Source of the DNA: a virus
UHGV virus genome: UHGV-0043514
Length of the DNA stretch: 16,909 nucleotides
Reading direction: 5' to 3' (one strand)
Below the pieces are notes generated by a model that was not told the origin of the DNA, made no database searches, and saw only the letters and a program-made list of their open reading frames with translations. Position 1 is the first letter of the stretch, and each line of letters begins with the position of its first letter. The position numbers and the translations under genes were made by a program. Below, piece after piece: positions 6,565 to 12,565 of this stretch.

Positions 6565-7215
6565 TTAAGGAAGGTTTGCTAGCTTGGCATCAACGACAAC
6601 GCCAATGATTTTACAGTTCCCATTGATTTCAATCATTGGGTATTGTGGATTGAGTGGTTTCAGGAATTTTCTACCGGCATCAATAACTAACTTTTTGAAT
6701 GTCGCCTCGTTTTCTCCTTCAAGTTTGGCGACTACCAGCTTTCCATTACGTGGTTCGACTTCTGGGTCGACGAGAATAATCATCCCCTCAGGAATACTCA
6801 GTCCTGCCGGGGCAGTCATTGAATCGCCTTTAACGTCGAGCCAAAAAGAGTCTTCAGAACAATCTACCGTTGTGTCGTACCAGTTATCTATTGCACGCCT
6901 ATGATATGGCTCTACAGCTTCCATCCAACATCCTGCGCTTACCCAACTAATTAGAGGATACGAACCTCTTGGATCATGCCTGCTGTGATAGGCAATGTTT
7001 GAAAGACTATCCTCTCCTTTCAACAGGTAATCAGGGGAGCACTGCAAAGCCTTGGCTAAGGCCAATAGGTTTTCGCCATTGGGCTCAGTTTCAGATCGCT
7101 CCCATTGGGAAATAGCAACATTAGACACGCCAACCATCTTGCCAAGGGCAGCCTGCCTAATCTTGAGTTCTTTTCTGCGAGCGCGAATACGCTCACCCAT
7201 CAGTTGTGTATTCAT
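6565..7215 (-). CDS. cI: Phage repressor, P22 C2 type (216 aa): N-terminal helix-turn-helix, C-terminal LexA-like autopeptidase domain
   Basis: MNTQLMGERIRARRKELKIRQAALGKMVGVSNVAISQWERSETEPNGENLLALAKALQCSPDYLL... matches P22 C2 as recalled; catalytic-domain motifs GDSM and KLVVAKLEGENEATFKKL. Confidence 0.93.
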   Translation of the reverse strand: MNTQLMGERIRARRKELKIRQAALGKMVGVSNVAISQWERSETEPNGENLLALAKALQCSPDYLLKGEDSLSNIAYHSRHDPRGSYPLISWVSAGCWMEAVEPYHRRAIDNWYDTTVDCSEDSFWLDVKGDSMTAPAGLSIPEGMIILVDPEVEPRNGKLVVAKLEGENEATFKKLVIDAGRKFLKPLNPQYPMIEINGNCKIIGVVVDAKLANLP

Positions 7216-7295: not shown

Positions 7296-7481
7296 ATGTA
7301 CAAAAAAGATGTTATTGACCACTTCGGAACCCAGCGTGCTGTTGCTAAAGCACTAGGCATTAGCGATGCAGCAGTCTCTCAGTGGAAAGAAGTTATCCCA
7401 GAGAAAGACGCCTATCGATTGGAAATCGTTACAGCTGGCGCCCTGAAGTATCAAGAAAGTGCTTACCGCCAAGCGGCATAA
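7296..7481 (+). CDS. cro: Cro repressor (61 aa)
   Basis: MYKKDVIDHFGTQRAVAKALGISDAAVSQWKEVIPEKDAYRLEIVTAGALKYQ; helix-turn-helix; divergent from the repressor gene; GGAG Shine-Dalgarno. Confidence 0.9.
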   Translation: MYKKDVIDHFGTQRAVAKALGISDAAVSQWKEVIPEKDAYRLEIVTAGALKYQESAYRQAA

Positions 7482-7596: not shown

Positions 7597-7893
7597 ATGG
7601 CACAAGCAAGCTACAGCAAGCCAACACAGCGAGAAATTGATCGCGCAGAAACAGATTTACTCATCAACCTGTCAACGCTTACCCAGCGCGGTCTGGCAAA
7701 GATGATTGGCTGTCATGAATCGAAGATAAGCAGAACGGACTGGAGATTTATTGCTTCGGTCTTGTGTGCTTTCGGAATGGCATCAGACATCAGTCCGATT
7801 AGCAGGGCTTTTAAGTATGCGCTTGATGGACTCATCAATAAAAAACGCCCGGCGGCAACCGAGCGTTCTGATCAAATACAAATGGGATTTTAA
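7597..7893 (+). CDS. cII: CII-family transcriptional activator (P22 C1-like, 98 aa)
   Basis: C-terminus NKKRPAATERSDQIQMGF is nearly identical to the lambda CII C-terminus (KKRPAATERSEQIQMEF); helix-turn-helix in the centre; position after cro and nutR. Confidence 0.88.
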   Translation: MAQASYSKPTQREIDRAETDLLINLSTLTQRGLAKMIGCHESKISRTDWRFIASVLCAFGMASDISPISRAFKYALDGLINKKRPAATERSDQIQMGF

Positions 7894-7916
7894 CAACATC
7901 CAACGAGGTAATTATA

Positions 7917-8188
7917 TGCGAAACAAAGGCTTTAATCCACCTGATACACACAAAGAAGCTAAGCGTTTGCGCTTCCTTCGTTCCATTGATGAAAGAACTC
8001 AAATCTCTTTTGTGAAAGTTGCCAGAACTGAGCTTCTGAAGGCTGAGGCGAGGGCGTTGCTCCCGTCTCTACCGAAAGAGGATGGATATACGTTCATTCC
8101 AAACGCATTTCTGGAAAAGCTGCTCAAAGAAGACATATCCGTAAGTCAGTTTAACGATGTTCTTAAGGTCTTTCGTCAAGGCAGGTAG
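7917..8188 (+). CDS. Hypothetical protein (90 aa) between cII and the replication initiator
   Basis: ATG 7917 with GAGG 8 nt upstream; MRNKGFNPPDTHKEAKRLRFLRSIDERTQISFVKVARTELLKAEARALLPSLPKEDGYTF...; the track's 145-aa ORF overlaps cII, so the shorter start is preferred. Confidence 0.45.
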
Positions 8189-8190
8189 TT

Positions 8191-9138
8191 ATGAGCAATA
8201 CAGCAAAAATCTACGATTTCAGCGCCGCACACGAGCGCAGGAGCAACAGGATGGAGAACCAGAAAACTGGTTACATTCCGTTGTACCGGAGCATTCTGAA
8301 ACAGTCATGGGCGAAAGATGTTTATCTTCGCACCCTGTGGGAAAACCTTCTCCTGAATGCCGCCAGAAAGCCATACAAAGCGAATTTCAAAGGTCATGAA
8401 TGGCATCTGCAACCCGGTCAACTGGTTGTGACAGCAGCTGATTTAGGTCTTCAGTTATGCGACAGACATGGCAAGCCAGCAAGCCGTGATCAGGTTGAGC
8501 GGATGCTTCAGGTTTTTGTGAAAGAGGGGATGATCTCCATTGATGGAGAGAAGCAAAAAGGTCGTGTGATAACCATCACAAATTACCATGAATATGCTCA
8601 AAAAATGGACAATTTACCCGCACATGAAGCCGCACAAACAACCGCACATGATTCCGCACATGGAGAAGCCAGTAATGGCGCGGCTTTCAGCGCACATGCC
8701 GCACATGAAAGCGCACATGAAAGCGCACATGAAGCCGCACATCATGAACAAGAAGGTATTAACAAGAATATAAATAATACCCCCCTACCCCCCAATGGGG
8801 GAGGCGATGGGCAGGTTAAACCTGAACGTCGCAAGGCAGAACGAATCGACTACGAATCCTTCCTGAACGCCTACAACACCGAAGTAGGTGACAGACTGCC
8901 ACACGCTGTTGCGGTCAACGAGAAACGCAAACGCCGCCTGAAGAAAATCATCCCGCAACTGAAAACGCCAAACGTGGACGGTTTCAGAGCGTATGTCAGG
9001 GCGTTTGTGCATCAGGCCAAGCCGTTTTACTTCGGAGACAACGACACGGGCTGGACAGCTGATTTTGATTACCTGTTGAGGGAAGATTCGTTAACGGGAG
9101 TACGGGAAGGGAAGTTTGCAGACAGGGGGATTGCATGA
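8191..9138 (+). CDS. Replication initiator (lambda O / P22 gp18 functional type, 315 aa) with a repetitive His/Ala/Glu linker encoded by the iteron-like repeats
   Basis: Position immediately upstream of the DnaB-like helicase; N-terminal DNA-binding-like domain; linker [16 protein letters not shown]...[19 protein letters not shown] encoded by reiterated CGCACATGA units. Confidence 0.7.
8617..8800. repeat. Candidate replication origin: about nine CGCACATGA-type repeats at 12-bp periodicity, an AT-rich tract, and a CCCCC-AAT-GGGGG palindrome
   Basis: Repeats at 8619, 8631, 8643, 8655, 8691, 8700, 8712, 8724, 8736; AT-rich 8751-8780 (aacaagaatataaataata); palindrome 8783-8797; all inside the initiator ORF, as in the lambda ori/O arrangement. 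Confidence 0.5.
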
Positions 9139-12290: not shown

Positions 12291-12320
12291 TTGACGCGAT
12301 GATTTATCCGGGGCTATATT
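12291..12320 (+). promoter_or_regulatory. Sigma70-like promoter (TTGACG, 17-bp spacer, CTATAT/TATATT) immediately after ninE
   Basis: -35 TTGACG at 12291-12296; -10 CTATAT at 12314-12319; predicted start near 12327. Confidence 0.5.
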
Positions 12321-12381
12321 CCCAGCATGCCAGCAAAATCTGGCGTCGGGATTGGCGTCCCGGATAGAGACCGCGACAGAC

Positions 12382-12404
12382 ACACGCCGCGAGCGTGTTT
12401 TTTT
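12382..12404 (+). terminator. Strong intrinsic terminator (ACACGC-CGCGA-GCGTGT followed by T7)
   Basis: 6-bp GC-rich stem, 5-nt loop, then tttttttatt; about 75 nt downstream of the predicted start of the 12291 promoter. Confidence 0.6.
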
Positions 12405-12565
12405 ATTGTCGAATGCACGCGCACATCTGAATTATGGTGGGCTGTGTGGGGGCGGAGAGATCCGCGCCGGTCGGTTTCCCGGTTACGCCAACCCTGCACA
12501 GTTCACCACCAGACGATTGGCGTCGTCGGTGGTGAGTTATTTAGAAACCACTCGAGGGCGTCATT

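Follow-up and report, generated by a model that had tools for sequence, protein, structure and literature searches.

Here, we asked what maintains a tandem array of 12-bp repeats in the middle of the replication initiator gene of UHGV-0043514, a virus genome analysed as one stretch of 16,909 nucleotides (hereafter, the window). The initial annotation of this DNA had likened the array, along with the AT-rich tract and the palindrome that follow it, to the lambda ori, and had suggested that the His/Ala/Glu-rich linker encoded by the repeats is either merely tolerated or endowed with a function of its own, e.g., metal binding. Our analysis suggests, with a probability that we put at about 0.85, that positions 8617-8801 serve a lambdoid prophage, of the P22/HK97/CUS-3-like kind, as its replication origin, lodged in the linker-coding stretch of the initiator gene; the linker is predicted to be disordered. 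This reading draws together the location of the array between the coding regions of two protein domains, constraint at the level of DNA, co-variation of the repeats with the protein, the modular inheritance of these elements, the precedent of lambda, P22, and phage L, and the coincidence of the AT-rich tract with the GC minimum of the gene.

Short direct repeats, an AT-rich tract and an inverted repeat within an initiator gene

As initially claimed, the repeats exist, and they are not a product of chance. The sequence CGCACATGA is present in nine copies altogether, of which five are exact (starting at 8619, 8643, 8700, 8712, and 8724), three have one mismatch (8655, 8691, and 8736) and one has two (8631; CGCACAAAC). 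Across the whole window, 13 matches with at most one mismatch were found, compared to 5.06 ± 2.16 expected, a count reached in 0 of 200 shuffles; 8 of the 13 fall within 126 bp, and there is no second cluster of repeat cores elsewhere in the 16.9-kb window. Tandem Repeats Finder reports two period-12 arrays, at 8618-8662 and 8700-8742. In strict register, the array consists of eight 12-bp direct repeats with the core CCGCACAT, arranged 4 + 4, with starts at 8617, 8629, 8641, and 8653 and at 8698, 8710, 8722, and 8734 (Table 1). The earlier count of about nine copies at 12-bp periodicity, in blocks spanning 8619-8663 and 8691-8747, was thus right in the number of copies and of blocks, but only eight copies are in register, the blocks that they form extend over 8617-8664 and 8698-8745, and the copy at 8691 is off register. 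This ninth copy varies among close relatives (GTACATGCC, GTACGTGCC, GCACATTCC, and others, with GTACAT or GTACGT in most) and, judging from these sequences, is probably incidental. The 12-bp units show no dyad symmetry beyond CATG. Each unit reads x-Ala-His-x, except for that at 8629, in which Gln (CAA) takes the place of His, and the peptide encoded by the array contains ten His in 45 residues.

The AT-rich tract that follows the repeats is slightly longer than initially annotated (34 rather than 30 bp, at 8746-8779) and has a GC content of about 21%; the 40 bp at 8740-8779 are the lowest in GC in the entire initiator gene (22.5%). The tract sequence CATGAACAAGAAGGTAATAAC... is kept in all 24 representative lineages defined below, irrespective of the C-terminal domain of the initiator. 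Beyond the tract lies a C-run/G-run inverted repeat, counterparts of which, with other loops, are found in P22 (inside the annotated rep_origin), in Enterobacter phage ENT1, and at locus L020. Inspection of the spacer and core by eye, no scan having been run, revealed no convincing match to the DnaA-box, IHF, or Fis consensus.

As the initial annotation had it, all these elements lie inside a replication initiator gene, an open reading frame (ORF) at 8191-9138 whose product has Phage_rep_O as its sole Pfam match. In HF4s, CUS-3, Gally, JEP4, and dozens of Shiga toxin (Stx) 2a-converting phages, genes 97-98% identical to it carry the annotation replication protein O. A comparison of the initiator sequence with all PDB chains gave no match. 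In the AlphaFold2 model, built from an 18-sequence alignment (mean predicted local distance difference test score, pLDDT, of 59, and 65-84 in the N-domain), a helix at residues 44-58 is followed by strands within 63-80, helices at 82-88 and 99-111, and wing strands at 115-129. The helix at residues 99-111 (helix 3) is the predicted recognition helix, and residue 82 opens helix 2. When the model was compared to the PDB with Foldseek, the top matches were all winged-helix regulators, and weak (E >= 0.03), so that no structural relative closer than such generic regulators can be named. The residues encoded by the putative origin (143-204), those of the repeats (143-185) among them, fall entirely in a segment with pLDDT below 50, and this inter-domain linker is predicted to be disordered.

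Constraint on the DNA and co-variation with the protein

Relatives were drawn from one genome per species, from viral contigs, and from annotated phages, and 257 loci were parsed; the first scan of viral contigs yielded only copies 99-100% identical, and the diversity came from scans with two diverged family members. Conservation was measured in 24 representative lineages with N-domains less than 92% identical. The two-block design is present in 255 of the 257 related loci. Among 168 distinct arrays, 122 measure 150 nt (4 + 4 units), 44 measure 126 nt (3 + 3), and two measure 57 nt (a single block of three); the spacer is constant at 33 bp in 166.

In a position weight matrix of the 24 lineages, the core xCCGCACAT carries 1.3-2.0 bits, with unit positions 3-8 at 1.7-2.0 bits and positions 1, 10, and 12 at 0.1-0.4 bits. 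The silent third-codon positions of the core are almost invariant: unit positions 3 and 6 carry 2.00 and 1.91 bits in the 92 units of the GCACA type, and the silent core positions carry 1.78 and 2.00 bits in the 68 units of the GCGCA type, against a background of 0.52 bits, the average of 13 four-fold sites in codons for residues that do not vary in the neighbouring N-domain. The first position of each unit, which determines the amino acid, carries 0.1-0.2 bits only. In the window itself, all 8 Ala codons of the array are GCA, compared to 34% of the Ala codons elsewhere (p about 1.6e-4). That silent sites are frozen, whereas sites that determine amino acids are free, indicates that selection acts on the DNA. 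Simple homogenisation by slippage is an unlikely cause, because slippage would make whole units alike.

The core comes in two types, GCACA(T/A) and G(C/A)GCAT, which differ at a silent position (GCA vs GCG), and its state is shared by every unit of an array, of which there are six to eight. This state is matched by the protein: in each of the 84 distinct N-domains, the GCACA core goes with Asp100 and the G(C/A)GCA core with His100, and residue 82 (Ala vs Ser/Thr) tracks the core in the same 84, without exception. In the winged helix predicted by AlphaFold2, residue 100 occupies the second position of helix 3. On a neighbour-joining tree built without bootstrapping, parsimony calls for at least two changes. 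We regard this co-variation between the core and the predicted recognition helix as supportive rather than as proof; the pairing of Asp with A and of His with G would fit common base-contact preferences.

Variation in the number of blocks

The comparison of repeat number across related initiator genes, which had been put forward as a check in the initial annotation, reveals variation from one to four blocks, with array sizes among near-identical genes ranging from 3 to 16 or more units. Among initiators that are about 90-100% identical outside the array, those with a single block have 3, 4, or 5 units (264-292 amino acids), two-block initiators of 295 or 315 amino acids form by far the most abundant clusters, three-block ones comprise 326 or 346 amino acids and four-block ones 357, and one initiator has an eight-unit first block (these variants are proteins P0001, P0013, P0014, P0034, P0039, P0042, P0047, P0049, P0063, and P0064 and loci L267 and L268). 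The number of blocks rises and falls by way of a 93-bp higher-order repeat, and block 2 of the window differs from that of most relatives by replacement of the CGCACAAACAAC unit. Given this gain and loss among near-identical initiators, a single block beside the AT-rich tract may suffice.

The wide variation in copy number, the predicted disorder of the encoded segment, and the unit replacement in block 2 of the window are all in keeping with an alternative explanation, namely, that the repeats are slippage-prone, low-complexity coding sequence for a flexible linker, with no function as DNA, and that the origin lies elsewhere in the phage. We consider this scenario improbable. Only the 8-bp core is conserved, silent positions included (about 2 vs 0.52 bits), whereas the remainder of the units differs within one array, an outcome that slippage homogenisation would not yield. 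Furthermore, the array measures 150 or 126 nt, with the constant 33-bp spacer, in 166 of the 168 distinct cases, the core co-varies with the predicted recognition helix, and the annotated origins of lambda and P22 are found at the same position.

Alternatively, the repeats could be initiator sites devoted to control rather than to initiation, through autoregulation, titration, or pairing as in the handcuffing of plasmids or the 'inhibition phenotype' of lambda. Indeed, cloned lambda iterons inhibit the replication of incoming phage (PMC3349717), the extra iterons of Stx phages are weakly bound yet needed for replication (PMC7466680), and the window has two blocks where many intact genes have one block alone. 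However, the blocks directly abut the AT-rich tract, as they do in functional origins, and the window contains no other core cluster that could serve as the true origin. An array given over to control in place of initiation is thus quite unlikely, and a control role would most likely be additional, not alternative.

Sister classes and modular inheritance

Sister classes keep the layout of the window, although core, recognition helix, and encoded peptide have all changed. In the CGAT class, whose initiators are 63% identical to that of the window, the recognition helix reads SPQAVTRM and the units, arranged 3 + 3, read CA(C/T)(C/G)CGAT(G/A)AAC and encode PDEPCDKPSD. The initiator of ENT1 is 47% identical, and its units, GTCGAAGGTAGT / GACGAGCCTCCA (G(T/A)CGA(A/G) type), are likewise arranged 3 + 3, with block starts 69 bp apart (36 + 33 bp); the AT-rich tract and the C/G inverted repeat then follow. 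These units were missed by Tandem Repeats Finder and detected by a second repeat search. In Lactobacillus phage phiAT3, with an initiator 32% identical, five 11-bp tandem units come directly after the N-domain. In phiAT3, TGACAATCAA also recurs without mismatch 65-130 bp upstream, in two further copies (locus L271, 1407-1416 and 1472-1481) inside the part coding for the N-domain; from their sequence, these may be auxiliary initiator sites.

The peptides encoded by the repeats of sister classes (PDEPCDKPSD, VEGSDEPPVE, or CPTDVQRMS) contain little or no His and are unrelated to one another, so that the His/Ala/Glu composition in the window is a consequence of the core, not a conserved property. 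The first of the two options offered by the initial annotation, i.e., that the linker is merely tolerated, is accordingly the one favoured by the data: the peptide changes in classes with the same layout, His is replaced in individual units, and the segment is predicted to be disordered. Probably, the peptide is a by-product of repeated GCA-CAT, and a linker that can do without a fixed sequence tolerates it. The second option, that a role of the His-rich peptide itself (metal binding, regulation, or docking) maintains the repeats, could invoke the ten His in 45 residues and the retention of His in most units of the GCACAT and GCGCAT classes, but is very hard to credit, given that the His-rich peptide is not conserved between classes, that His follows from the conserved CAT of the core and gives way to Gln, Leu, Asn, or Arg in individual units, that Ala alternates with Glu (GCG/GAG) in one class, that single-block variants have 3-4 His only, and that silent positions are more conserved than those that determine amino acids.

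Comparison at the DNA level reveals where the module begins and ends. Homology with Klebsiella and Yersinia phages covers the N-domain, the repeats, and the AT-rich tract and ends at about 8774; homology with HK97, ST104, and Nil2 (~90% DNA identity) runs from about 8764 through the C-domain into the helicase gene. Thus, the Klebsiella and Yersinia phages join the window-type N-domain and repeats to lambda-type C-domains and Phage_lambda_P partners, and, conversely, HK97, ST104, and Nil2 combine the same C-domain and 458-amino-acid DnaB-like partner with another N-domain that has its own repeats. These comparisons show that the N-domain, the repeats, and the AT-rich tract are inherited as one module, in keeping with the classical rule for lambdoid phages, by which the N-domain and its sites set the specificity for the origin, and the C-domain that for the partner. 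One record, GenBank OR850084.1 (H62, H139; 2,692 bp), is labelled 'Staphylococcus phage SA 1298 Kay' and matches this enterobacterial initiator region, with 87% identity of the DNA in the C-terminal part and 46% identity of the protein in the N-domain; its label seems to be wrong, or the entry contaminated.

Comparison with known origins

The initial comparison to the lambda ori arrangement is supported. In lambda, P22 (gene 18), and HK97 (O gene), as in the window, the origin lies midway along the initiator gene, with the repeats, the AT-rich tract, and the inverted repeat, a weak one in the window, in the same order, and the initiator consists of a Phage_rep_O N-domain and a C-domain matched to the partner replication protein. 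The iterons of lambda are annotated, as is a rep_origin inside gene 18 of P22, and lambda has a palindrome with 12-bp arms at the same relative place as the inverted repeat of the window. The repeats themselves are of a different kind. Lambda, P22, and HK97 each contain four dyad-symmetric units of 18-20 bp, with identical spacings of 20, 24, and 23 bp, a pattern that is absent from the window, where two blocks, placed on either side of a conserved spacer, comprise eight 12-bp direct repeats that lack dyad symmetry. The units are not only much shorter than those of lambda, as initially noted, but also differently built. Lambda O binds as dimers, and the geometry of the repeats in the window suggests another mode of binding.

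The closest precedent in layout is Salmonella phage L (GenBank MW013502, rep_origin 31649-31725, inside gene 18), in which the putative origin is likewise located within an O-like gene followed by that for a DnaB-like helicase, and in which short direct repeats, a ~33-bp spacer with CCAGTAATG(A/G)CGCGGCT, further repeats, and an AT-rich tract (AAACAATAATATAAATAATA) succeed one another as in the window. The unit of phage L is 11 bp long (TGTCCAACGGA) and arranged 3 + 3, compared to 12 bp (xCCGCACATxxx) and 4 + 4 in the window, and the C-terminal domain differs from that of the window. Phage L gp18 and the window initiator are distant homologues, with 22% identity over the full length (BLASTP E = 8e-10). 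MW013502 contains the replication region of phage L, and AY795968 is a fragment with head genes. A publication has noted six imprecise 11-bp repeats in phage L, taking them for a likely origin (bioRxiv 10.1101/2020.10.05.325894 / PMC8022706). The phage L origin is itself a prediction from sequence; the two-block design and the conserved spacer are not mentioned in that paper (PMC8022706).

The spacer deserves separate attention. Its centre, CCAGTAATGGCGCGGCT (17 bp, 8669-8685), is conserved across all repeat classes, including the CGAT class, ENT1, and phage L, and is seen at L274 3683-3699, L265 about 2952-2970, and L270 about 1593-1612. The first ~22 bp of the spacer exceed background conservation in every class, and positions 24-33 are poorly conserved. 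Between phage L (CCAGTAATGACGCGGCT) and the window, one base differs in the central 17 bp, despite initiators that are only 22% identical, and both sequences fit the consensus CCAGTAATG(G/A)CGCGGCT. This centre encodes S-N-G/D-A-A, and silent changes occur in it (AGT/AGC, AAT/AAC, and GCG/GCT); therefore, either a DNA site or the short S-N-G-A-A peptide motif could be under selection. Natural single-block variants lack the spacer. A spacer hairpin (AAGCC...GGCTT or GCCA...TGGC), in which Klebsiella shows a single change that seems compensatory, was also considered and dropped, as it is not kept in Sodalis, Scandinavium, and the CGAT class.

Two further groups of phages bear comparison. The Stx phages 933W and P27 have six lambda-type iterons, and the sites distal to the AT-rich tract may contribute in spite of weak binding (PMC7466680). 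In Stx phages, as among the relatives of the window, the number of initiator sites varies between related phages; unlike the window, 933W and P27 encode genuine lambda O and P proteins, and their iterons are 19 bp long. The combination of a Phage_rep_O protein with a DnaB-like helicase has been termed Eru2 (PMC8044961), and the module of the window is a variant of this type. We found no description of binding sites for the Eru2 type in the literature, nor of the particular repeats of the window, although the coverage of older papers was thin, so that their absence is not proven.

Plasmid iteron replicons (RepA, pi, TrfA, and RepE) likewise have direct repeats that lack dyad symmetry and adjoin an AT-rich unwinding region, and their winged-helix initiators are thought to bind iterons as monomers, a mode that the repeat geometry of the window suggests by analogy. 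Plasmid iterons, however, are about 17-22 bp long and located outside the rep gene, whereas the window has 12-bp units inside the gene, and its initiator matches Phage_rep_O only, and no plasmid Rep family; the likeness goes no further than the geometry of direct repeats.

A model of initiation and its weak points

For binding, stoichiometry, unwinding, and helicase recruitment at this origin, we infer the following scheme. The N-terminal winged-helix domain would bind the eight 12-bp direct repeats, probably with one initiator subunit per repeat, head to tail, given that the units have no dyad symmetry and that some blocks consist of three units. The nucleoprotein complex formed on the repeats would stress and open the adjoining AT-rich tract, and the C-terminal domain would then bring in the DnaB-like helicase of the phage itself, encoded by the next gene.

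Several observations weigh against the origin reading or reduce its force. The structure model of the initiator is of modest quality, as its mean pLDDT and the size of the underlying alignment indicate. The palindrome described initially is present, at 8789-8801, but its stem of 5 bp and loop of 3 nt do not by themselves reach significance (-6.6 kcal/mol, z = -1.5, a folding energy equalled by 18 of 200 shuffles). The copy number of the array is unstable, with one to four blocks among near-identical genes. The origin annotations of P22 and phage L, which serve as precedents, rest on similarity or are 'putative'. The co-varying sites are tightly linked, and their co-variation comes down to about two events inferred on an unbootstrapped tree. 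Finally, gene conversion among the repeats could add to the uniformity of the units.

A more elaborate reading joins these elements into a non-lambda origin design. Subunits bound head to tail on the 12-bp repeats would form two short filaments flanking the near-invariant CCAGTAATGGCGCGGCT, which could be the site for a common factor (e.g., a host DNA-bending protein) or encode an S-N-G-A-A docking motif, and expansion and contraction by the 93-bp unit, between one and four blocks, would tune replication and, thereby, toxin gene dosage in Stx2a phages. We offer this combination tentatively and consider it rather doubtful that it holds as a whole.

Genomic context

The window corresponds to an early region of lambdoid type, from a prophage or a phage (Table 1). 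The closest overall relatives of the window are the Escherichia phages Gally, Kapi1, JEP4, HK97, and CUS-3, each of them a mosaic, with 42-70% covered.

Table 1. Coordinates of the putative origin, the initiator gene, and neighbouring genes in the window
Feature	Positions	Strand	Basis or remarks
cI	6565-7215	minus	Pfam Peptidase_S24/HTH_3
cro	7296-7481		Pfam P22_Cro
cII	7597-7893		Pfam Phage_CII
O-like replication initiator gene, 315 amino acids, holding the entire putative origin	8191-9138	+	ORF; Pfam Phage_rep_O, amino acids 20-132, E = 3.3e-15
Coding region of the N-terminal winged-helix DNA-binding domain (predicted)	8248-8601	+	Pfam match; AlphaFold2; co-variation
Iteron block 1, four 12-bp direct repeats	8617-8664	+	CCCGCACATGAA, GCCGCACAAACA, ACCGCACATGAT, TCCGCACATGGA
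Spacer between the blocks, 33 bp	8665-8697	+	
Off-register ninth copy, within the spacer and 9 bp ahead of the following core	8691-8699	+	CGCACATGC
Iteron block 2, four 12-bp direct repeats, abutting the AT-rich tract	8698-8745	+	GCCGCACATGAA, AGCGCACATGAA, AGCGCACATGAA, GCCGCACATCAT
AT-rich tract, 34 bp, presumed first strand-opening site	8746-8779	+	GAACAAGAAGGTATTAACAAGAATATAAATAATA
C-run/G-run inverted repeat	8780-8801		CCCCCCTACCCCCCAATGGGGG; arms 8789-8793 and 8797-8801
Coding region of the helical C-terminal domain, presumed to recruit the helicase	8836-9117	+	AlphaFold2 residues 216-309, pLDDT 79-89
DnaB-like replicative helicase gene (P22 gene 12 type), 458 amino acids, overlapping the initiator stop codon	9135-10511	+	Pfam DnaB_C, E = 6e-78; DnaB, E = 4.5e-13

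We favour 8191 as the start of the initiator over the MENQK start of many database entries, because the N-terminal extension (8191-8250) resembles the start of lambda O (MTNTAKILNFGRGNF...) and is kept in Yersinia and sister-class proteins. The N-terminus of lambda O is a recognition signal for ClpX and, by analogy, the window initiator, like lambda O, may be unstable. A small conserved gene lies between cII and the initiator gene (window ~7900-8188, plus strand; L265 2238-2498; L267 1166-1438); it encodes 86-90 amino acids in relatives, has no Pfam match on record, and appears in the ORF list of the window only within a longer, TTG-started ORF at 7751-8188. Farther downstream, on the plus strand of 12314-12513, Rfam matches above the gathering score comprise a c4-a1b1 target (12314-12366), isrK (12327-12403), and C4 antisense RNA (12430-12513), i.e., a P1/P7-type antisense immunity cassette that presumably controls a downstream antirepressor.

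Implications

An origin of this kind is textbook knowledge, and the subtype, though poorly characterised, has been noticed before, in phage L; what the window represents, on our reading, is a new specificity class within that subtype. The module of N-domain and origin is widespread: it is present in 280 of 5,426 complete Escherichia coli genomes, as well as in CUS-3, HF4s, Gally, JEP4, and 48 records of Stx2a-converting phages in the collection searched, and none of the inspected records of phages carrying this initiator has an origin annotation. The chief value of the present analysis is, thus, in annotation, as the origin of a widespread type of initiator can now be placed to the base. Beyond this, the comparison yields candidate rules of specificity, in which Asp100 goes with a core A and His100 with a core G, with at least three further core classes, and defines a two-block design that is common to the window and phage L. 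If the spacer binds a host factor, or if the number of blocks affects replication, there could be, speculatively, a bearing on the induction of Stx phages and on toxin dosage.

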